DNA of 64,000 bases, taken from contig NZ_JBGCDQ010000028.1 in assembly GCF_045105575.1 (NCBI RefSeq), positions 1,744-65,743 of the forward strand, written 5' to 3'. Below are positions 39,984 through 50,563 of this stretch, one piece after another. Each line of letters opens with the position of its first letter. The stretch's first letter is position 1. Under the pieces are notes generated by a model. That model was not told where the DNA came from and ran no database searches. It was given only the letters and a program-made list of their open reading frames with translations. A program made the translations under genes and the position numbers. Origin of the DNA: Winogradskyella sp. (lineage in GTDB: Bacteria > Bacteroidota > Bacteroidia > Flavobacteriales > Flavobacteriaceae).

Positions 39984-40850
39984 ATGAAGAAGGGACTACT
40001 GATCGTATTTTTATTATTAGCGTTAGGCTTATTAGCATTTCAATTGCAACCAGTTAAAAAAGCGGTTGACACTGTTACGGCCATAATTGAAACTCCAAAT
40101 TTAATTAATAAGGATAGTTTAACGATAGAATCTCGAGTTAACATTCCAGTAGGTTATAAAAGAGTTGATTATCCTAAAGGAAGTTTTGAAAATTATATTA
40201 GACGATATAAGCTTAAACCCTTTGGAAGTAAAATTATTAATTACGATGATTCTGAATATTTTTGGCAAGGAGGTCATATCGGTATTTTAGATATTCCTGT
40301 TCCAAAAAACGGCTTACAACAATGTGCAGATGCCTTAATTAGAATTAGGAGCGAATACCTTTGGGATACTAACAGAAAGGATGAAATAGGTTTTAAATTC
40401 ACCTCTGGACATTATTGCTCTTGGACTAAATATGCTGAAGGCTACCGACCTAAAATTAATGGTAATAAAGTGTCGTTTCATAAAACAGCTTTGGCAAATG
40501 GGTCTAAAGAAAATTTCTATAAATACCTGAATCTTATTTATATGTATTCAGGAACGTTATCACTTTATAATGAATTAGACGCGATTAAAGCCGAAGATTT
40601 AAAAATAGGCGATATGTTGATTAAAGGAGGTTCGCCAGGTCATATTGTAATGTTGGCGGATGAAGTTGTAAATGACAATGGTGAAAAACTGTTTTTATTG
40701 TTTCAGGGAAATACTCCAGCTCAAAGTGTGCATTTAGTGAAAAATCTCGAAGATTCAGATATTTCTCCTTGGTATCATTTAGAAGATGATGCTACAATTC
40801 CTGTTTCTAATTATACGTTTAGTAGTGCTAAGTTTGTGCGTTTTAAATAA
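39984..40850 (+). CDS. DUF4846-type exported protein
   Basis: N-terminal anchor; LQQCADALIRIRSEY, GGSPGHIV, QGNTPAQS. Confidence 0.75.
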   Translation: MKKGLLIVFLLLALGLLAFQLQPVKKAVDTVTAIIETPNLINKDSLTIESRVNIPVGYKRVDYPKGSFENYIRRYKLKPFGSKIINYDDSEYFWQGGHIGILDIPVPKNGLQQCADALIRIRSEYLWDTNRKDEIGFKFTSGHYCSWTKYAEGYRPKINGNKVSFHKTALANGSKENFYKYLNLIYMYSGTLSLYNELDAIKAEDLKIGDMLIKGGSPGHIVMLADEVVNDNGEKLFLLFQGNTPAQSVHLVKNLEDSDISPWYHLEDDATIPVSNYTFSSAKFVRFK

Positions 40851-40904: not shown

Positions 40905-41618
40905 CTAATCGCTACCAAAAGTAATTGTAAGTTGTGCGGTACCTGATACATTCATTAAATCGTTTAAGAATATATCATAGTCTGGATGTGTAGTGTTTAT
41001 ACCGCCAGGTAATTCCCAAACTCTATAACCATTTGCTTCTTCATCAAAATAGGTAAAGGAAGGCTGAGATTCATTGGTCCAAGTAGATTCCTTGTTTTGA
41101 GAATATGAATAGCCAGCATAAACGATTTCATCAATTTGTAATTGATATAAGGTCGCATTTTCTTCAAATGGTATTAAAAAACCCATACGCCATTCCATTC
41201 TTGTACCATTACCCTCAGGATAACTGTCATGAAGCCAATAAACTGCATTTATTGTTTCAATAGTTACTTCTGGTTCCGTTACAAAAAAGAAACCAGCTTC
41301 AGATGTGCCGCCTCTACCATCATCTGCAATTATATATCCATCATAGCTCGTTTCAGGTTCTAATCCTGTAAAATTATAAGACAGGGTAGTGCCTCCTGTA
41401 GAAATAAGTTGGTCATTTAAATAAATAGAATACGTAATTGGGTCGTCATCAATATCTATAGCTTCTGTCCATTCAATATTAGCACCATCCATTCTGGTTT
41501 CGAGAATAGTGACTGAAAATGGTCCAGGTATAGTTTCATTTGGGTTATTACCATCATCTTCCGAAGAACAATTTACTAAGAAAAATGATAATACAAATAG
41601 ATAGGCATAATGTTTCAT
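40905..41618 (-). CDS. Fibronectin type III-like surface lipoprotein
   Basis: LVN-C followed by SSEDD; FN3 signature FTGLEPETSY. Confidence 0.75.
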   Translation of the reverse strand: MKHYAYLFVLSFFLVNCSSEDDGNNPNETIPGPFSVTILETRMDGANIEWTEAIDIDDDPITYSIYLNDQLISTGGTTLSYNFTGLEPETSYDGYIIADDGRGGTSEAGFFFVTEPEVTIETINAVYWLHDSYPEGNGTRMEWRMGFLIPFEENATLYQLQIDEIVYAGYSYSQNKESTWTNESQPSFTYFDEEANGYRVWELPGGINTTHPDYDIFLNDLMNVSGTAQLTITFGSD

Positions 41619-41646
41619 GTGTTTTGTTTTATTGGTTATTTAACAA

Positions 41647-41676
41647 TACATCGCGCAAAAACAATTATGTCATCAT
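41647..41676 (-). promoter_or_regulatory. Putative ECF promoter ATGATGACAT-N13-CGATGTA
   Basis: 28 nt upstream of ATG 41618; the same motif and spacing occur at 49022-49051. Confidence 0.6.
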
Positions 41677-41680
41677 GTTT

Positions 41681-44600
41681 TTAGGGTAAATTATATTTTT
41701 TACGTTTTTTTCTTAAGACTATAACGACTATAATTAATAGTACTAATGCAATTGCTAACCAGATCACCATATGAGAACTCGTTTTTAAGTGAATAGCATT
41801 AGTATCGCCAATAAGTACTAAACCTGCCCAATATTGAGGTGCTATGGTTCTGCCTTTAGCATTGGATATATAGTCCAATTTTGCTTTTTGTAAAGCTTCA
41901 TTTTTTGGTAATCCTTCTTTAAGATACCTGTAAAAATGTTCTATTATTTTGGCACTAGACTGCTCATCAATTTTCCATAAGCTTGTTAGTATGCTTTCAC
42001 TACCAGCATAATTAAAAGCATGTGCTAGAGAAATCATCCCTTCACCTGACTGATGCGTTGGTTTCCCAGTCTCGCAGGCTGTTAAAATGGCAAGATTTGA
42101 GGATAGATTCTGATTGTATATTTCGTAAGTATAAAGTGAATTGTCTTCATCTGAAACGTTTTTAGCAAATATAAGTCGCGATAATTCTGGTGATACATTA
42201 TTAGATTCTGCATGTGTGCCAATATGAATTATTTTATGCTCTTTGGCTCGTTCTGTAAATATTTGCTTAGATGCCTTTTCGTTTAAAAAAGAGGTTCCTT
42301 TAAATAATTTTGAATATTCCTTAGCTAAGTCCGCTGTAAATGGTTGTGGTAGTAGTTTTAAATATGTTCTATCGATGTTTATAGAATCTGTAATTGTAAC
42401 CATATAGTTTGCTTTCATTTCGCTATTAAACTCTGGGGCGAAGGCTATAAAATCGTTACTATAATCAATCGTTTTTTTGCTTTCATCGAGTAATAGCAAA
42501 CTATAATTATAAGAAATATTGTATTTAGCCAATAAGCTATTTTTGGCAAGGCCTTTGAATGTATTTATTTTGGTAGGTGTTAAGATTTCAAAACTTAAAT
42601 TGAACAATTCACCGTCTGGGAAAATAATGATATTTTTTGTTTTTATGTCACTTTCAAAATCTTGCCATAATGCTTTGTATAACTTATGATATAGCTCGCT
42701 CATTTTTGTAATATCATATTGATTTTTCCCAAGCGCATTGATGTTATTCTTTAAGTTTTTAGACTCTAGTTTAAATAATTTTTTTTCTTTTTTACCGGCA
42801 ATAAAAGCGTAAAGATTTTCTTCAATAAACAGATATCGAACTAATGTTGTGTTGTTAGGAATATTGTTTTGTAAATCAGTTAAAGGTTCTTCAATTGTAG
42901 CATAACGCATTTTGTAATATTTTGGATAACTCTGTTTTAAGGAATCTTTAAAAGACTTCCAAAGTTCTTGTGCATTAAAAAAGGTGTTAATATCATTTGA
43001 CTTGTTTAATGCTGCATACAAAGATGTTTTTAATTCTTTTTCTCTTTCAATAATGTTGCTAGGAATATCTGAAAAAGCGATGTTATTGCGTATGTTTAAA
43101 TGAGAACGAATACGATTATATATGCCAGACTCATGCATGGAAAGTATATCATTGAGATAGGTTTCATCGTTGGTTAATTCGTATAAATCTAAACAGAGTT
43201 GCTTTGCTATGTTGAATAAATCATTGTTGTCCTCGATAAGCGCAGAGATATCTTCTGATGCATTTACTACAGTTTTTCTTTGTTCTAAGATTTTTATTCC
43301 TTTTTTAATTTGCTTTAATAGGAATTGAAGAGAATCTACGTTTTTAGTTGTACTTAACTGGTATCTAGATTTTGCATTGATGTGCAAGGCTCTAGGTTTG
43401 TTCATTTCATTTTGAATAGAGTCTAAAGCATTATTCATTTTTAAATTAAATGACAGTGCTTCATTACTGTATTTTAGTGCTTCAGTATAGTTTTTTGATT
43501 TATAATGAACAAGCGCTAAGTTTTCTGTATGTTTAAATTTGCTTATTAAATTTTTAAAAGTAGCTTGTTTTGTATGATAATAACTTTCCTCAGCTAATTG
43601 TATCGCTTTTTCATTCATGCCATTTTGAGCATAAAATTGTGACATTTTTACAATAGCTTCTAAAAAATTAAAGGAGTAATTATTTTTATCTTTTTCCCTG
43701 TAAAGTGCTTCACTTTTCTTGTAGATTTTCTCTGCATTTTTAAAATCGTTTACGCTTTCGTAGATAGAAGCTCTTAATAGTAAGGCGTAATCTTGATAAT
43801 AAGGCGTATTTTCTATTGATTTTAACCCTAAATCTATATAGTAGCCAGCTTCCTCATAATTTTTGGCAACAAGATGTATGTGTCCTAAAATTAGGGCTGA
43901 TAAAATAACGTTTGGATCTTCGTTACTCATGGTTTTACGCTTTTGATCATAGGAGTAAGTAGCGACTTCAATAGCACTTTTGTTATCTCCAATACCTGAA
44001 TAAAAACCTGCTAGATTATCTATAGTTCCTAAACGAAATCGTGCAGCTCTTGTTTTTTTAGATTCATTTTCTGCAACGTTTACATAGCTTTGATAATCGG
44101 TGATTGCATTTTTCATGATGGTTATAGATTCTTCAATTTTTCCAGAATTAAATGAATTTAGACCTATGTTTTGTTTTACAATGGCTGCTCTGTAATATGC
44201 ATTCATTGGAGAATCTTCCATTTTTTGCAGAGCTTTAAGTGATTTGTTGTAGTAATAGTTTGAACTGTCTAGTTCTAACAAACTCGCTTTGATTCGTCCA
44301 ATAGAATTATAAGTAAGGTAAAATTGTTCAGCTTCAATATTTGGGTTGGCCTCAAGTATACTTTTTGATTTGTATAAATGTTTTTTAGCGAGTTCTAAAT
44401 CACTCAAATTAATTGCACAGGTTCCTAAATTGTATTCTATTTGTGCAATGTCCTTTTGAGCTAAAGGAAGTATTCTGTTTGCATAACTTAATGCTTCTTG
44501 GTTTAATTTATAATTTTTTTCAAATAATCTAGCTGTTGCATATAAATTTGCTAATTCTATCAAAGCATTTTTTGTTGTTTTTGGATGATTCGATTTTTTT

Positions 44601-44905
44601 ATAAACTCAACTAAATCTTCTGTTCTTTTAACGGCTTTATTTAGGTCATTGTTTGCTAGTTTTAAGCTACTAGTTATGGCTAAATATTTAACTAAAGAAT
44701 CGTATTGCTTTTCTGTTTTATAAGTTTTTATCTGCTTAGCTAGTATCAACTCAGCTTGTGTTATAGAGTCTTGATCAATGAGTGTATTAATCCTTTTGAA
44801 ATGAGAAGTTTGGTCATTCTGAGAATGAGCTCTATGTTGAGAGCTCAATAGAACAAAAAACAGCATAGTTATCCTAATACAATTATTAAATCGTTTCATA
44901 ATCAA
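41681..44905 (-). CDS. TPR + CHAT (caspase-like) protease with signal peptide and C-terminal TM anchor
   Basis: CHAT motifs IFPDGELFNLSFE, IHIGTHA (His), LTACETG (Cys), SLWKIDE, WAGLVLIG; TPR helices; C-terminal VIWLAIALVLLIIVVIVL-RKKRKK. Confidence 0.88.
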   Translation of the reverse strand: MIMKRFNNCIRITMLFFVLLSSQHRAHSQNDQTSHFKRINTLIDQDSITQAELILAKQIKTYKTEKQYDSLVKYLAITSSLKLANNDLNKAVKRTEDLVEFIKKSNHPKTTKNALIELANLYATARLFEKNYKLNQEALSYANRILPLAQKDIAQIEYNLGTCAINLSDLELAKKHLYKSKSILEANPNIEAEQFYLTYNSIGRIKASLLELDSSNYYYNKSLKALQKMEDSPMNAYYRAAIVKQNIGLNSFNSGKIEESITIMKNAITDYQSYVNVAENESKKTRAARFRLGTIDNLAGFYSGIGDNKSAIEVATYSYDQKRKTMSNEDPNVILSALILGHIHLVAKNYEEAGYYIDLGLKSIENTPYYQDYALLLRASIYESVNDFKNAEKIYKKSEALYREKDKNNYSFNFLEAIVKMSQFYAQNGMNEKAIQLAEESYYHTKQATFKNLISKFKHTENLALVHYKSKNYTEALKYSNEALSFNLKMNNALDSIQNEMNKPRALHINAKSRYQLSTTKNVDSLQFLLKQIKKGIKILEQRKTVVNASEDISALIEDNNDLFNIAKQLCLDLYELTNDETYLNDILSMHESGIYNRIRSHLNIRNNIAFSDIPSNIIEREKELKTSLYAALNKSNDINTFFNAQELWKSFKDSLKQSYPKYYKMRYATIEEPLTDLQNNIPNNTTLVRYLFIEENLYAFIAGKKEKKLFKLESKNLKNNINALGKNQYDITKMSELYHKLYKALWQDFESDIKTKNIIIFPDGELFNLSFEILTPTKINTFKGLAKNSLLAKYNISYNYSLLLLDESKKTIDYSNDFIAFAPEFNSEMKANYMVTITDSINIDRTYLKLLPQPFTADLAKEYSKLFKGTSFLNEKASKQIFTERAKEHKIIHIGTHAESNNVSPELSRLIFAKNVSDEDNSLYTYEIYNQNLSSNLAILTACETGKPTHQSGEGMISLAHAFNYAGSESILTSLWKIDEQSSAKIIEHFYRYLKEGLPKNEALQKAKLDYISNAKGRTIAPQYWAGLVLIGDTNAIHLKTSSHMVIWLAIALVLLIIVVIVLRKKRKKYNLP

Positions 44906-44921: not shown

Positions 44922-45662
44922 TTAATCGTTCAGTTTAGATAGGAGGACTTTACTGTTATCGATAGTTGAATTTTGTAAATTAGCTTTCGCTTTTTCTATA
45001 TTTCCTTCTTTTAAATACGCTAAACCTAAATAGTAATAGGCGTCATTAGCTAAAGGGAAATTAGAATTTTTAATAGACTTTTCTAAAAAGGAAATAGCAT
45101 CTCCTTCTTTCTTATTTGCAAGATAAGCGACACCAATAAAGTAATTTAATGTATCATTATTTGGTTTTGACTTTTGTAATGTTTCCCACTTAGAAATCGC
45201 CGTTTTGTAATCGCCTTGTTTGTAATTAACCATAGCTTCATAAAAGTCGTAGTTATTGTTGGTACTCATGGTTGTAGGTAAACCAGGATCTGGTGTAAAG
45301 TATTTTGCATACAGGCGCTCATTAGAGTTTCCGTTTAAAAACCAAAAACTACCTGCAGCAATCACTAAAGCTGCTGCAATTAAAAGGCGTTTCCAATTTA
45401 AAGAACGGACTTTAACGGTATCAGTAATTGGTTGTGTTCTGTGTTCTATTTCTAAATCATTATGAAAAACATTTAACTGCTCTTTTAGTGCTTGCGTTTC
45501 AATACCAGATAAAACAGTTTTAATGTCTTCTACTTTAATTTTAAAGTCAGCATCATTTTTTAGTTTAGCCTCAAACTCTAACAAATGTTTAGGCTCTAGT
45601 TTGCTATTGAGATAGGCCTCAATTTTTTCAAATTCGTCTTGTGATATATCACTTAAGTCCAT
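44922..45662 (-). CDS. Putative anti-sigma factor (N-terminal helical domain, TM helix, TPR C-terminus)
   Basis: IEAYLNSKL..LEFE..L N-terminus, TM LLIAAALVIAAGSFWF, TPR-like YYLGLAYLK.GN; directly after the sigma gene. Confidence 0.7.
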   Translation of the reverse strand: MDLSDISQDEFEKIEAYLNSKLEPKHLLEFEAKLKNDADFKIKVEDIKTVLSGIETQALKEQLNVFHNDLEIEHRTQPITDTVKVRSLNWKRLLIAAALVIAAGSFWFLNGNSNERLYAKYFTPDPGLPTTMSTNNNYDFYEAMVNYKQGDYKTAISKWETLQKSKPNNDTLNYFIGVAYLANKKEGDAISFLEKSIKNSNFPLANDAYYYLGLAYLKEGNIEKAKANLQNSTIDNSKVLLSKLND

Positions 45663-45667
45663 TGTTA

Positions 45668-46249
45668 TTAATCAGTTTTTAGGGCTATTTCTTTTAATTT
45701 TTGCATACATCGGTATTTTTTATTTCGTGTAGAAGCCGAATCTAATGCTAATTCTTTGGCAATTAAATTAATTGATTTCTTTTCAAAATAAAACTTACGC
45801 AGTAAGCTTTTGCATGCATCACCCAAATTTTTAAAGGCTTGCATTACGTCTTCTAATCGTTTGTCTTTTAAAATGTCATCATCCATTCCATTGTTTTCTT
45901 CATCTTTTATTTCAAAATGGCTTAATTGAGAAGCAACGATTGTTTTTTTATAGCCTTGAGACCTTAGAACATCCATCCATTTGTTTTTAGCAATAGTGTA
46001 GAGGTATCCGTTTATGGACGACTCACTTCTTGGTACAAATTTGTTTTGCTTAATGTTTTGCCAAACGGCTAAAAAGGCATCTTGATAGATGTCTTTTGCT
46101 TGGTCTTTAGAACCATTATTTTTTAAAACCAGTATTTCAATTTTTGGGTAATTAGAGGTGTACAGATTTTTTAATACTTGCGTATTATTGTTCTGTATAG
46201 CTTCTATAAAGCCTTGATTTTTAGTTAGGATAGAACTTTTCTCTTGCAT
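45668..46249 (-). CDS. ECF-type RNA polymerase sigma factor
   Basis: Region 2 AKDIYQDAFL ... YLYTIAKNKW; region 4 C..LL..FYFEK.S...IA..L ... KKYRC. Confidence 0.88.
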   Translation of the reverse strand: MQEKSSILTKNQGFIEAIQNNNTQVLKNLYTSNYPKIEILVLKNNGSKDQAKDIYQDAFLAVWQNIKQNKFVPRSESSINGYLYTIAKNKWMDVLRSQGYKKTIVASQLSHFEIKDEENNGMDDDILKDKRLEDVMQAFKNLGDACKSLLRKFYFEKKSINLIAKELALDSASTRNKKYRCMQKLKEIALKTD

Positions 46250-46332
46250 TGAGCACTAAATATAAGAGAAACGTATGATTTATCAAACGATGAGCGATTA
46301 ATTACATATTATAATTGCTGAAATTGAAATTT

Positions 46333-46952
46333 TTAAGTTTTTTTAATCATGTTTTTTCCAGCCCAACCTGTTCCAACAATAATAAAGAGCAATCCAGACC
46401 AACGCATTAAATTAAAACCAGATGATGGATTATTCATCTTAAATTCAAACACAGATTTTCCAAATGCGTCTTTATCAATTTTAATAGTATTGGCTTCCTC
46501 TGGAAAATTAATTATATGAGTTTGTTGTAGGTTATCGCCAAATTCTGGCGGACTACTTACAAGCATATATTTATGATCTGTAAGCGCTGTAACTTGCGCA
46601 TCCTTTTCATCTGTTTCTATAATCCATTTGCCACGTTTATCTATTTTGCAAACACCATAAGCGTTAAAACTTAAGTTAAAAGACCTATTCATATCATCTT
46701 TATCGAGTTTAAAATCATCTAAAATGAATGCTGCATACCACGTTCTTTATCGCGCTTTAATGTTGAAGGATTATTATCATAATTGGTGTTCCATTCGTTC
46801 CATTGTGCCGCATTCATAGTCATTGAAATATTGATTTTAGCATTGCCAATAGCATCTAAAGTCATTTCTATCTTCTGATTAGATTATTGTGAAAAAATCA
46901 TTAATCCATTTGCAAGAATCAAAACTGTTAATAATAGTTTTAATGTTTTCAT
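46333..46952 (-). pseudogene. Degraded exported/membrane protein gene (nonsense codon plus frameshift)
   Basis: MKTLKLLLTVLILANGLMIFSQ*SNQKIEMT...; TAA at 46886-46884; a frameshift between 46746 and 46719 joins ORF 46333..46692, which ends in a TM helix. Confidence 0.7.
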
Positions 46953-47110
46953 TTTAATTTGTTTTTAGGCTATCTAATACTGTTATAAACTTGATTTATA
47001 ATTCCTGAATTTTGACTAAATATAATCTGGTGCTCCTACTGTTACAAATCTTTACTATTCTTAAGCATTCATAGTCATAGAAGTTTATTTTCAAATTGCT
47101 AACTGGGTTA

Positions 47111-48214
47111 TTAGTTATTAATTGTTGTACTATTCCAGTCTCTATTGTTATAATTTGGATCCTTATTAGGGTCATAATTTGGGTCGTTACTAGAAATATA
47201 TTGACCATCATTATTCATCCAGTAATAATTGCTACCAGCATCGACTTTATAAGATTGTCCAGAATTGCTAGTTACTGTAGTTCTTTCGAGATGTGCATCC
47301 ATAAATTTCTGATGATTTCGGTCCACCGAAGCGCTATATTGTTTTCCGCGTTCAATAATAGCCTGTCCTTCAGCACGTAAATTCGCCATTCTCTGTTGAT
47401 GTAATTTGCCACTTTGTCGGGCAAAGTTTGCATCCTTCATATAAAAATAATGCAAATATTGTGGATTGTATTTTTTGTTAGCTTGGGCATAGATAAAATC
47501 CTTTTTTGTTTGCTCAAAGTGTTTGGTATCTACGTCTATACCTTGTAAATAAAATCCCCAAGCTACTTGTTGTTGGTTATCATAAGCCGCAGAATAGTGC
47601 ACTAGAATCAAAGAAGATGTTCCTGTATTACTCTTCCATTCTGAAGCAACAACATCAATTGTTTTACTTTGTTCATAGCCAGATTTAAATTTAAACTGTT
47701 CGTAATTTTTATCATAAGCAATCAACTCTGGTACTTTATACATTTTAACTAATTCTACACCATCTTGTTTAAAAGTTGGAGCAATCATTTCCTTAATGAC
47801 TTGCTCTGGTGTTTTTACAGGCAAAACTGCATTACCAGTTTGTGCAGCGGTTTGGTTTATAAACGGATCGCTTGAGTAAGTGTACATTGCACCTTGCTCG
47901 CCAAAAAACTTAAACCCATTATTACCAGTCATTTGTGTTTGAGCATTTGGGCTTTTTGGAGTCATTTTCCAATCTGATGGCACTGGCATCTGAAACATAT
48001 CCATATTAAGTTGGTCATCTCTAAAGGTTTTAAATTGAATAGATTTTGCGGGAATTGCAGATGTTCTGCTAGTTGTGTTTGCGTTAATTGCGCCTTTAAA
48101 TTCTGAAACATTATTATAAAATTGAACAGAATTATTTGCGTGTGGTTGATTTTGGCAAGATGTAAAAAAGATGCTAAAGATGAATATAACTGATAGTGTG
48201 AGTGAATATTTCAT
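47111..48214 (-). CDS. Lipoprotein of unknown function
   Basis: FTS-C lipobox; N/D/P/Y-rich C-terminus (SNDPNYDPNKDPNYNN). Confidence 0.75.
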   Translation of the reverse strand: MKYSLTLSVIFIFSIFFTSCQNQPHANNSVQFYNNVSEFKGAINANTTSRTSAIPAKSIQFKTFRDDQLNMDMFQMPVPSDWKMTPKSPNAQTQMTGNNGFKFFGEQGAMYTYSSDPFINQTAAQTGNAVLPVKTPEQVIKEMIAPTFKQDGVELVKMYKVPELIAYDKNYEQFKFKSGYEQSKTIDVVASEWKSNTGTSSLILVHYSAAYDNQQQVAWGFYLQGIDVDTKHFEQTKKDFIYAQANKKYNPQYLHYFYMKDANFARQSGKLHQQRMANLRAEGQAIIERGKQYSASVDRNHQKFMDAHLERTTVTSNSGQSYKVDAGSNYYWMNNDGQYISSNDPNYDPNKDPNYNNRDWNSTTINN

Positions 48215-48240: not shown

Positions 48241-48990
48241 TTATTGTCTGTTTGGATCAAAAGGAAAATTGTCTTGGTTATCAGGAGTTCCATCTAAATC
48301 TGAATCTCTTACACTATTGTCAATAATTAAAAGTTGCCAATGAATTGGTAAAAAATCGTTCATAACTAAATTGTCATATTCTGCTGTAGGCCCAGACGCC
48401 ACAGAAACTGAAGCAAATGTTGAACCTAAAGAAGTATCAAAAAATGAATTAATAGCGACTAAAGCAGTGAAATTCCCAAAGCGTATTAAACGTGTACTTG
48501 TACTACTAATAAAATTGCCTAATGGTTGAGTTGTATTTTGCTCGCAATCCACAGTGAAGTTTCCTGTATGTCCGTAAAACGCAAATAATTGGTTGACTTC
48601 CGCTGCAACGATGTCTAATATATTTATTTGGTTAAATGCCGTGAGTCCAGGAACGTAACGCCAAACCACTTGGTTGTCATTTCTAAAAACATTAACTCCT
48701 AATCCTGTCTGAGCTTCAGATGCACTATAACCTTGAGGCATAATAAAACCTAATGCAGGATATTGACTGTGGATAAATTGTTGCCCAGGATTAGACAAGG
48801 TTGGTATGCTTGTTAATGGTAAAGGTAAACCGTGTGCATTATCCCAATAGGCAGCCGTGGGTCCAGAAATATTTAAACATAATTCTGAATTGAAATTTCT
48901 AAGATTATTAGGATCAGAGGTAGAATTTTTACTGCAAGAATTAAAACAAATAAACAGTAAACTAATTTTTAAAAGATGGCAAGGTTTCAT
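48241..48990 (-). CDS. Lipoprotein with a C-terminal thrombospondin type 3-like Ca2+-binding repeat
   Basis: FNS-C lipobox; DSDLDGTPDNQDNFPFDP. Confidence 0.75.
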   Translation of the reverse strand: MKPCHLLKISLLFICFNSCSKNSTSDPNNLRNFNSELCLNISGPTAAYWDNAHGLPLPLTSIPTLSNPGQQFIHSQYPALGFIMPQGYSASEAQTGLGVNVFRNDNQVVWRYVPGLTAFNQINILDIVAAEVNQLFAFYGHTGNFTVDCEQNTTQPLGNFISSTSTRLIRFGNFTALVAINSFFDTSLGSTFASVSVASGPTAEYDNLVMNDFLPIHWQLLIIDNSVRDSDLDGTPDNQDNFPFDPNRQ

Positions 48991-49021
48991 AAAAAAGGAA
49001 TGTTTAACGTGTTGTTATGTC

Positions 49022-49051
49022 TATATCGAAGTTTTTTTAAAATGTCATCAT
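49022..49051 (-). promoter_or_regulatory. Putative ECF promoter ATGATGACAT-N13-CGATATA
   Basis: 31 nt upstream of ATG 48990; matches 41647-41676. Confidence 0.6.
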
Positions 49052-49098
49052 TCATTTTTCTTTGAAGCAATTTTTATTACCATTTCTAAGCAAGTTTG

Positions 49099-49106
49099 TA
49101 TCTTTG
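49099..49106 (+). promoter_or_regulatory. -7 promoter box
   Basis: TATCTTTG, ending 4 nt before ATG 49111. Confidence 0.6.
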
Positions 49107-49110
49107 CAGT

Positions 49111-49488
49111 ATGAGTAAAAAACTAACACCTCAACAAATTCATAATCTTGCCATGAACCATGTTGGTAAGGATCTCGAAGCGCGAGGTTTTGAATTTATC
49201 GCCATTAATAGTAAGTTAAAACGACATCCGCAATTTGTGTGTATCGATAAAAACAGTCAATACTTTTTTGTGGTAGTAAGAGCTGTGATACTTCCTGAGA
49301 ATCCAAATAACTATGATATCGTTTGGATGGAAACCTTCAAAAAGCATGCTTACGATAAAGATGCGAAAGTATTGTACGCAGGAGTAGGAATAGGAAATCC
49401 TAAAGGTGAAGGCTTACCTATTCATTTAAACGAAGAGTACCTTATAGAATACAATGGCATCCAAGTCATTGAAATGAATTTAAATTGA
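49111..49488 (+). CDS. Hypothetical protein (125 aa)
   Basis: ORF from MSKKLT; first gene of a probable operon with apbE. Confidence 0.7.
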   Translation: MSKKLTPQQIHNLAMNHVGKDLEARGFEFIAINSKLKRHPQFVCIDKNSQYFFVVVRAVILPENPNNYDIVWMETFKKHAYDKDAKVLYAGVGIGNPKGEGLPIHLNEEYLIEYNGIQVIEMNLN

Positions 49489-49585
49489 TATTCGGAAAAA
49501 AACAATTTTTGCTTCGATAGTTTTAATCGCTTTATTTGTGAATGAAAATGTAGGCATGAGGAAAATTGAAGCTAATAAAAAATAT

Positions 49586-50563
49586 ATGAAACACATACTT
49601 TACTTATTATGCATTGTCTTACTAGTATCTTGCGAAAAAGAGCTAAAAATCATTAAAACATCGGGTCCTGTTTTTGGAACAGCCTACAATATTCAATTTG
49701 CTTCTACAGAAGAAACTAATTATCAGCAGCAATTTGATAGTCTTTTTAATGTGGTGAATAACTCTATGTCAACCTACATTCCAAATTCTATAATTTCAAG
49801 ATTAAATAGAGGTGAAGATGTGGCTGTGGATGCCCATTTTCTTCGTGTATTTAATAGTGCAAAAACCATTTATAGAAGTACACAAGGCGCTTTTGACCCA
49901 ACCATAGGTGCCGTTGTAAACGCTTGGGATTTTGGTCCAGAAGGTAAAATTACAAATATAGATAGCACAGCAATTGATAGTTTAATGAAATCTGTTGGTT
50001 TTAACAGAATGGGTTTACAGAAGAATAGGGTTATTAAAAGTAATCAGTCGTTTTTAGATTTCAATGCCATCGCTAAAGGTTATGGTGTCGATGCGATTGC
50101 CCAATTTTTAGAACAAAAAAATGTAACTGATTATTTAGTAGAAATTGGTGGTGAAATGCGTACCAAAGGCATAAATATTGAAAAAAAATCAGCTTGGACC
50201 GTTGGTATTTTTGATCCAAACTTTGAAGGACCTGACTCCTATTCCAAAGTAATCGATTTAAAAGATCAAAGCATGGCCACCTCTGGTACTTATAGAAAAT
50301 TTAAAATTGACGAGAATGGCAATCGTTACGCACACATTATAGATACCAAAACAGGTTATCCAACTAAAACAAACATTCTAAGTGTTTCCGTCATCGCAGA
50401 GGATTGTATGACTGCAGATGCTTATGCCACTGCATTTCAAGCCATGGGAATTAAAAAAGTATCGGAATTCGTAGAAAGACGACCAGAGTTAAAGGTGTAT
50501 TTCATTTATGAGGATGATGATAATACATTACAAACGTTGAGTTTGAATGGTTTTCCTGAATAA
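49586..50563 (+). CDS. apbE: FAD:protein FMN transferase
   Basis: Lipobox LVS-C; FNAIAKGYGVD, VEIGGE, ATSGTY, HIIDTKTG, ADAYATA. Confidence 0.93.
   Translation: MKHILYLLCIVLLVSCEKELKIIKTSGPVFGTAYNIQFASTEETNYQQQFDSLFNVVNNSMSTYIPNSIISRLNRGEDVAVDAHFLRVFNSAKTIYRSTQGAFDPTIGAVVNAWDFGPEGKITNIDSTAIDSLMKSVGFNRMGLQKNRVIKSNQSFLDFNAIAKGYGVDAIAQFLEQKNVTDYLVEIGGEMRTKGINIEKKSAWTVGIFDPNFEGPDSYSKVIDLKDQSMATSGTYRKFKIDENGNRYAHIIDTKTGYPTKTNILSVSVIAEDCMTADAYATAFQAMGIKKVSEFVERRPELKVYFIYEDDDNTLQTLSLNGFPE

Follow-up and report, generated by a model that had tools for sequence, protein, structure and literature searches.

Comparative analysis of a bipartite DNA motif from a marine Winogradskyella supports the existence of an uncharacterised family of ECF sigma factors, which very probably reads a sharply defined promoter and is accompanied by a control module split into TPR and CHAT parts and by a probable feedback promoter within the sigma gene. 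The window, by which we mean the entire 64,000-nucleotide stretch of DNA studied here, was placed in Winogradskyella (Flavobacteriaceae) by a scan of named genomes. The genes of interest lie on its minus strand, where they follow each other in transcription order as a 249-aa lipoprotein, a 367-aa lipoprotein, a decayed gene, the sigma factor, a 246-aa membrane protein, a TPR-CHAT protein and an FN3-domain lipoprotein.

A first-pass annotation of the sequence had described two copies of the motif, and an exact re-reading of the minus strand agrees with it in the two sites, their spacings and their identity at 16 of 17 specified positions. Site 1 (41647..41676, minus strand; ATGATGACAT-aattgtttttgcg-CGATGTA), an ECF-type promoter-like element, begins 4 nt past the CHAT stop codon and is located 28 nt 5' of the ATG at 41618 of the FN3 lipoprotein gene; W. 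damuponensis has an equivalent copy 3' of its CHAT gene. Site 2, of the same type (49022..49051, minus strand; ATGATGACAT-tttaaaaaaactt-CGATATA), is located 31 nt 5' of the ATG at 48990, which opens the 249-aa lipoprotein gene. The spacers, of 13 nt each, are unrelated, and hence the sites share nothing beyond the two boxes. No TAnnTTTG box, the Bacteroidetes sigma-A element, occurs within 150 nt upstream of either start codon, which bears out a further observation of the annotation. When the full motif was searched for in the window with up to two mismatches, 0.04 matches were expected and two were found. Exact matching of the core TGATGACA-N14-CGAT additionally recovered a third copy at 45856..45881 on the same strand, which had escaped the annotation; in its extended form (45853..45882, minus strand; GTGATGACAT-N13-CGATTAG) it lies entirely inside the sigma ORF.

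The annotation had further proposed a genome scan and an inspection of orthologous modules, and both associate the motif with the module. Exact copies of the 12-nt core number four in the 3.36-Mb genome, and three of them fall within the 8-kb module, all on one strand. The fourth (contig C25:58628..58653, minus strand) runs antisense inside a 418-aa ORF, and a nearly identical sequence is present in two congeners that lack the sigma factor; on both counts we rejected it as a regulon site, and its recurrence in sigma-less congeners indicates a conserved coding sequence that matches by chance. With one mismatch allowed, the core has 14 matches in the genome against 3 for the control; nearly all lie within ORFs, and no further convincing regulon site was found in this assembly, which is 91% complete. 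Across the genus, nine sigma-bearing Winogradskyella genomes (sigma identity 70-100%) contain 44 matches against 3 for the reversed pattern used as control, and 16 sigma-less congeners contain 3 against 3. A survey of the family, with one genome for each of 201 genera, recovered the sigma factor in 33. The 32 sigma-bearing genera other than that of the window have 103 matches against 2 for the control; 20 sigma-less genera have 7 against 3, none with the T-rich extension of the motif. Sigma-bearing genomes thus average 3-5 copies and sigma-less relatives are at background. At least two matches are present in 35 of 41 sigma-bearing and in 1 of 36 sigma-less genomes (Fisher p = 2e-14, with kinship ignored). 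The orthologous modules of Winogradskyella and of about 30 other genera of Flavobacteriaceae carry the same motif, placed either before members of the same lipoprotein families or immediately 5' of the sigma gene. Partial matches are plentiful in AT-rich intergenic DNA, and sites 1 and 2 might on that account be alike by chance, or be remnants of a repeat or mobile element. The expected counts in the window, the rarity of the motif in the genome and its recurrence at orthologous positions in congeners and in dozens of genera refute such an origin, to which we assign a practically negligible probability.

We then considered the geometry of the motif in 80 loci of 6.5 kb each that had been fetched through sigma homology alone and hence independently of the motif. 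Strict motifs number 96 on the sigma strand of these loci, against a single one antisense. The two boxes are separated by N14 in 96 cases, by N13 in 2 and by N15 in 4, with none at the other spacings between N10 and N19, and the motif ends 18-45 nt before a start codon in nearly all cases. In a position matrix derived from the 49 non-intragenic sites, information is also present at positions that had not been selected for, namely a T-rich stretch at positions 9-12, G/A-T-A at positions 27-29 and T-A-a-A at positions 34-37. The last of these blocks falls 6-8 nt past the -10-like box, where the +1 is expected. The motif thus has the bipartite structure, fixed spacer, strand specificity and distance to genes of an ECF-type promoter. 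Most described ECF promoters have an AAC core in the -35 element and a gap to the -10 element that is usually 16-17 nt. In place of the AAC core and of the CGT core of the -10 element we find TGATGACA and CGAT, so that the CG of the -10 box is the sole part in common with the usual consensus; the -35 box reads GAC/ACA, with a gap of 15 nt from GAC to CGAT. On computational grounds the motif is real, specific, promoter-shaped and tied to the presence of the sigma factor.

This specificity, co-occurrence and geometry lend comparative support to the proposal of the annotation that the two blocks are the -35 and -10 elements of the local ECF sigma factor, and the motif is very probably the cognate promoter of the sigma encoded at 45668..46249. 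The consensus would be TGATGACA(TTTT)-N14-CGAT(G/A)TA, in which sigma region 4.2 would recognise TGATGACA as the -35 element and region 2.4 would recognise CGAT as the -10 element, with transcription starting 6-8 nt past the latter. From sequence comparison we infer both the binding of sigma to the motif and the positions of the starts, which are predicted near 41639-41641 for site 1 and near 49014-49016 for site 2. It is very unlikely that the motif is instead the operator of another DNA-binding regulator that travels with the module. Such a regulator would be compatible with the co-occurrence, which is with the whole module and not with sigma alone, and the link of sigma to the DNA is itself one of sequence comparison; but sigma is the only protein of the conserved core that matches a DNA-binding family, and there is no housekeeping TAnnTTTG box on which such a regulator could act. 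Two blocks around a rigid 14-nt spacer of free sequence, 96 sense copies against one antisense, the promoter-like distance to start codons and the A-rich block at the expected +1 likewise speak for a promoter. Promoter-like matches of the sigma-70 type were no commoner in the module than in shuffled sequence, and a terminator scan of the module detected no minus-strand terminator. A search of the published literature for TGATGACA in connection with a sigma factor, or for flavobacterial studies of transcription start sites, returned nothing relevant.

The predicted reader of this promoter is a 193-aa protein (45668..46249, minus strand) that matches the Pfam family Sigma70_r2 (E = 1.6e-10) and, over residues 27-187, the NCBIfam model TIGR02937 for ECF sigma-70 factors (63.4 bits against a cutoff of 42.9). 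As it contains the sigma2 and sigma4 domains only and matches the ECF model, it belongs to the ECF (group 4) sigma-70 factors. Its best conserved stretches across about 30 genera are regions 2.3/2.4 (GYLYTIAKNKW) and 4.2 (STRNKKYRC), and the conservation of these predicted DNA-reading regions fits a DNA target that has remained unchanged across the genera sharing the motif. Distant genera have the motif some 85-200 nt 5' of the sigma coding region or, alternatively, ahead of a lipoprotein gene that adjoins sigma on its 5' side; one or the other arrangement was found in 33 of 38 distant and in 23 of 42 close loci. A motif upstream of sigma is the classic signature of ECF autoregulation, as read from the sequence. 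In the window the nearest copy upstream of sigma is 2.8 kb away, and since there is no proximal ECF-type motif, positive autoregulation here would need read-through of about 2.8 kb across the decayed gene.

In place of the ECF-type motif, a sigma-A-like promoter (46257..46287, minus strand; TTTG-N19-TAtaTTTA) has its 3' end about 7 nt from the sigma start codon. This element, a near-match to TAnnTTTG, is kept in 5 of 9 Winogradskyella orthologues, and the position has no ECF-type motif. The sigma gene of this clade is probably transcribed from a directly adjoining promoter of the housekeeping type. The replacement of the ECF motif by a housekeeping-like element suggests a sigma factor that is produced constitutively, with inhibitors that are produced on demand. 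A 33-nt block, cAAtTTCAGCAAtTATAATATGTAATTAATCGC, at 46294..46326 (minus strand), 45-77 nt upstream of the sigma start codon and just 5' of the sigma-A-like promoter, is also kept in 5 of 9 Winogradskyella orthologues and looks like an operator. Elsewhere in the same genome, on contig C27 at about 36.2-40.1 kb, a second ECF sigma (31% identical) adjoins a second CHAT protein (29% identical over the C-terminal 477 aa) in divergent orientation; thus, the pairing of sigma and CHAT recurs within one genome. In another of the genomes, G011, two tandem CHAT genes occur 3' of sigma.

The third copy of the motif is positioned in the linker between sigma2 and sigma4, where it codes for DDDILKDKRLE, about 185 nt upstream of the ATG at 45662 of the next gene. 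It is present in all nine Winogradskyella orthologues first examined, and within the 80-locus set it was found in 39 of the 42 loci whose sigma is 58% identical or more, as against 3 of the 38 more divergent ones. Across 42 distinct genes the four codons that make up the boxes are nearly invariant (GAT 42/42, GAC 41/42, CGA 42/42 and TTA 42/42). Their entropy does not exceed 0.16 bit, whereas the 74 other columns with conserved residues have a median of 0.98 bit and only one of these is under 0.2 bit (Mann-Whitney p = 1e-5, with kinship ignored); an earlier codon test on nine sequences had given a Fisher p of 4e-5. Two of the fixed codons are minor ones, GAC (21% usage) and CGA (13%), and other Asp, Arg and Leu codons of these genes vary freely. 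Such codon fixation implies selection on the DNA of the internal copy beyond that on the protein.

The internal copy is therefore likely, in our estimate, to be a working promoter, with a start predicted near 45845-45847, and it probably drives the anti-sigma-like and CHAT genes. The window thus has a site of the sigma type within the sigma ORF and upstream of a candidate anti-sigma gene, as seen in the P3 promoter of rseA. From such a promoter the TM-TPR and TPR-CHAT proteins could be transcribed without re-making sigma, which would provide a negative-feedback arm. It may be a weak promoter, because CGATTAG departs from the consensus CGAT(G/A)TA. This departure of the extended -10 box would also suit an explanation in which the site is no promoter and a protein-level need for DDILKDKRL, together with an AT-rich codon preference, maintains it, and GAT, TTA and AAA are indeed preferred codons. 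We consider this unlikely: GAC and CGA, although minor codons, are fixed in 41-42 of 42 genes, both boxes are retained at the exact N14 spacing, and in orthologues without the internal motif the linker is hypervariable and the least conserved part of the protein. The last observation suggests that the DNA motif constrains the linker peptide and not the reverse.

The predicted start also falls, at motif positions 35-37, 1-3 nt before an in-frame ATG (45842..45844). An intragenic promoter might hence mainly yield an mRNA, leaderless or nearly so, for a sigma4-only fragment of 58 aa (Met136-Asp193) that modulates the system, with the anti-sigma/CHAT transcript being secondary, and the GTA-ATG codons are in fact invariant in nine Winogradskyella orthologues. 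But the methionine is also kept in orthologues that have no internal motif, and is therefore not specific to the motif-bearing clade, and the precedent of rseA P3 in E. coli accounts for the arrangement without a fragment. We know of no such sigma4-only fragment for ECF sigmas, and regard its production as the main role of the site as distinctly improbable. A sigma-dependent promoter for the two downstream genes is the most economical account of the site.

The first of these genes (44922..45662, minus strand) follows the sigma gene after a gap of 5 nt and is co-conserved with it in nearly all genera. It encodes a 246-aa single-pass membrane protein in which three N-terminal helices (residues 8-73) are followed by a TM helix (90-109) and a predicted periplasmic TPR domain; the AlphaFold model has a pLDDT of 84.5. 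Searches of its N-terminus against Pfam at E <= 10 for an anti-sigma family, and of the protein for an anti-sigma fold by profile against solved structures and by Foldseek against the PDB, returned TPR matches or noise. Further, its N-terminal 90 residues contain no cysteine, and hence no zinc-binding motif. Its position, topology and co-conservation nevertheless make it the candidate anti-sigma factor. The second gene (41681..44905, minus strand) encodes a 1074-aa protein with a Pfam CHAT domain (E = 4e-41) and TPR matches. We read from its sequence an N-terminal signal peptide and a C-terminal TM helix, which would place it outside the cytoplasm. The His/Cys dyad of the CHAT domain is intact (HIGTHAE and TACETG), and both motifs are conserved in orthologues. 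A sequence search of the CHAT protein against solved structures gave no match, and hence homology to the DdvA protein of Myxococcus xanthus is not demonstrable beyond the Pfam domain. By analogy with the DdvS/DdvA system of that species, the membrane protein probably holds sigma inactive until it is itself removed by the periplasmic CHAT protease or by a signal that works through this protease; CHAT cleavage would release sigma.

At the output end, site 1 would drive the FN3 lipoprotein gene, and site 2 the genes of the 249-aa and 367-aa lipoproteins, possibly with read-through into the sigma gene. The 249-aa lipoprotein (48241..48990, minus strand; lipobox ...FNSC|SKN) represents the most recurrent family of the regulon, 20 of 23 orthologues having the motif upstream at the corresponding position. 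It matches no Pfam family; its model is an alpha/beta sandwich (pLDDT 85, pTM 0.76), for which weak matches to proteins of the DcrB, PsbP, LpqN and SciW types (TM 0.25-0.45) give a hint only. Its C-terminus carries an invariant D-x-D-x-DG motif resembling those that bind calcium (DSDLDGTPD). The second recurrent family is typified by the 367-aa lipoprotein (47111..48214, minus strand; lipobox ...FTSC|QNQ), which also matches no Pfam family and has the motif upstream of 28 of 35 orthologues. The 237-aa FN3-domain lipoprotein (40905..41618, minus strand) has a lipobox, ...LVNC|SSEDDG, with an acidic tail as is usual in Bacteroidetes lipoproteins exposed at the surface; the motif precedes only 3 of 8 orthologues of this family, and relatives of it are found at two dispersed motif sites. 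Congeners have 24 dispersed sites, 17 of which are followed by an ORF that begins with a signal peptide or lipobox. For 53 dispersed sites of other genera, an ORF starts just downstream in 44 cases and encodes a signal-peptide protein in 36 of these (binomial p ~1e-12 against an assumed background of 30%). Annotated outputs include a lipocalin-like lipoprotein, a papain-family protease lipoprotein, an OMP beta-barrel, three T9SS cargo proteins and a YadA-head repeat protein. Many of the output lipoproteins continue after the cysteine with serine and acidic residues, and a Cys-Ser-acidic tail is a Bacteroidetes signal for surface export. The prevalence of signal peptides thus points to a regulon of cell-surface and secreted proteins. 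The annotation had predicted that the outputs are surface lipoproteins, and these do form the largest class, but OMP beta-barrels and T9SS cargo belong to the predicted regulon as well.

The module is flanked by a DUF4846 gene (39984..40850, plus strand) on one side and by a 130-aa ORF with ApbE (49096..50563, plus strand) on the other. The same flanks bracket the module in W. damuponensis, and the 130-aa ORF and ApbE adjoin sigma in three other genera. By these comparisons the chromosomal site is conserved, and from one species to another the accessory lipoprotein genes have been reshuffled, lost or moved elsewhere. The decayed gene (46333..46952, minus strand) belongs to a family whose members of about 205 aa are intact in relatives, with a signal peptide and a C-terminal TM helix. 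In the window the gene is interrupted by an in-frame stop codon that follows the signal peptide (MKTLKLLLTVLILANGLMIFSQ*) and by a frameshift, which leave a 119-aa ORF (46333..46692) as its 3' part; the damage may be genuine or may reflect an assembly error in a genome of 75 contigs. The motif precedes none of 18 orthologues of this family. At about 46990..47075 (minus strand) we additionally observed the last 25 or so codons of another gene (...VGAPDY..NQNSGIINQVYNSIR), whose body is missing; in relatives this gene is intact and located upstream of the 205-aa gene. The surviving tail therefore implies that a stretch between the 367-aa lipoprotein gene and the decayed gene has been deleted.

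As a tentative synthesis, which we consider possible but less likely than not, the Flavobacteriaceae might possess a widespread split switch, in which a periplasmic TPR-CHAT protease tethered to the membrane cleaves a TM-TPR anti-sigma from a separate gene in trans and frees an ECF sigma. This sigma would read TGATGACA-N14-CGAT and re-tailor the surface proteome of lipoproteins, OMPs and T9SS cargo, possibly upon attack by phage or on the envelope, as in the case of DdvA. In Winogradskyella, Xanthomarina and Psychroserpens the feedback promoter would have moved into the sigma gene, yielding a dual-coding linker whose peptide is dictated by the promoter. The only sigma switch with a periplasmic CHAT protease studied to date is DdvS/DdvA, whose distribution is narrow; the split version is found in about one in six of the sampled genera of Flavobacteriaceae, cultured type strains included. 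Winogradskyella thalassocola DSM 15363 is one cultured carrier of both the module and the motifs. Owing to the sharply defined promoter, its output genes can be listed from sequence alone. The module opens the questions of which signal is sensed, of whether CHAT acts as a site-1 protease in trans and of why abundant marine polysaccharide degraders place surface lipoproteins and T9SS cargo under such control. The intragenic copy would, in addition, be an instance of overlapping codes, in which an embedded promoter freezes both codon choice and an otherwise free linker.

The predicted promoter resembles canonical ECF promoters of the SigW or SigE type (GAAC-N16/17-CGT) in being bipartite, with a rigid spacer, a -10 element that begins with CG and a role in autoregulation. 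It differs from them in having TGATGACA instead of GGAAC as -35 element, CGAT instead of CGTC or CGTA as -10 element and a spacing that is one base shorter. Among the described ECF groups, ECF54 likewise has a CHAT-domain protein in its conserved neighbourhood, with regulation by proteolysis being predicted; as described, it has no anti-sigma, its listed model member is actinobacterial (Geodermatophilus), and its neighbours include a carboxypeptidase and a subtilase (Huang 2015 and Casas-Pastor 2021, summarised in PMC8999054). We set it beside the present family by description only: here a TM-TPR partner is nearly always present and there is no subtilase. The main text of the ECF reclassification paper does not mention CHAT/TPR partners in Bacteroidetes. 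A protease is also coupled to the release of an ECF-like sigma in Craspase of the type III-E CRISPR systems, with the TPR-CHAT protein Csx29, Csx30 and CASP-sigma (PMC10028731). Craspase is cytoplasmic, RNA-guided and linked to CRISPR (PMC10028731), whereas the CHAT protein described here is predicted to be exported and has no CRISPR nearby; the match of the sigma factor to the III-E sigma model is only weak, at 34.8 bits where the cutoff is 100.

The nearest characterised system is DdvS/DdvA of Myxococcus xanthus, of which the module resembles a split version. Both comprise an ECF sigma, a single-pass membrane partner, a periplasmic TPR-CHAT region with an intact His/Cys dyad and several sigma-dependent promoters around the locus, the export of the TPR-CHAT protein and the promoters being predictions in our case. 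DdvA is one polypeptide that unites a zinc-binding anti-sigma domain, a TM helix and TPR-CHAT, whereas here the functions are divided between two ORFs (44922..45662 and 41681..44905), with a CHAT region for which no sequence similarity to solved CHAT structures was detected. The CHAT domain of DdvA has been proposed to be the site-1 protease that acts ahead of RseP cleavage, which is still a hypothesis for DdvA itself, and fused homologues were reported by the authors of that study from Myxococcota and a single Comamonas species only. The regulons differ too, with CBASS and CRISPR defence genes in the case of DdvS/DdvA and predicted cell-surface proteins here.

For the intragenic promoter the closest parallel is the rpoE-rseABC locus of E. 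coli, in which the sigmaE-dependent P3 promoter of rseA is described as lying inside rpoE, with its start 228 nt before rseA (Rhodius 2006, as cited in PMC8595263). In both loci the own promoter of the sigma factor is situated within the sigma coding region, at 228 nt as against about 185 nt here, and yields, in our case by prediction, a transcript for negative regulators without sigma. What distinguishes the present locus is the dual-coding linker with its measurable synonymous constraint, and a transcript that would also encode the CHAT protease. Given the unrelated phylum, sigma group and motif, the likeness to rseA P3 would be convergent, and the placement of a feedback promoter within the sigma gene appears to have arisen here independently of that in rpoE.
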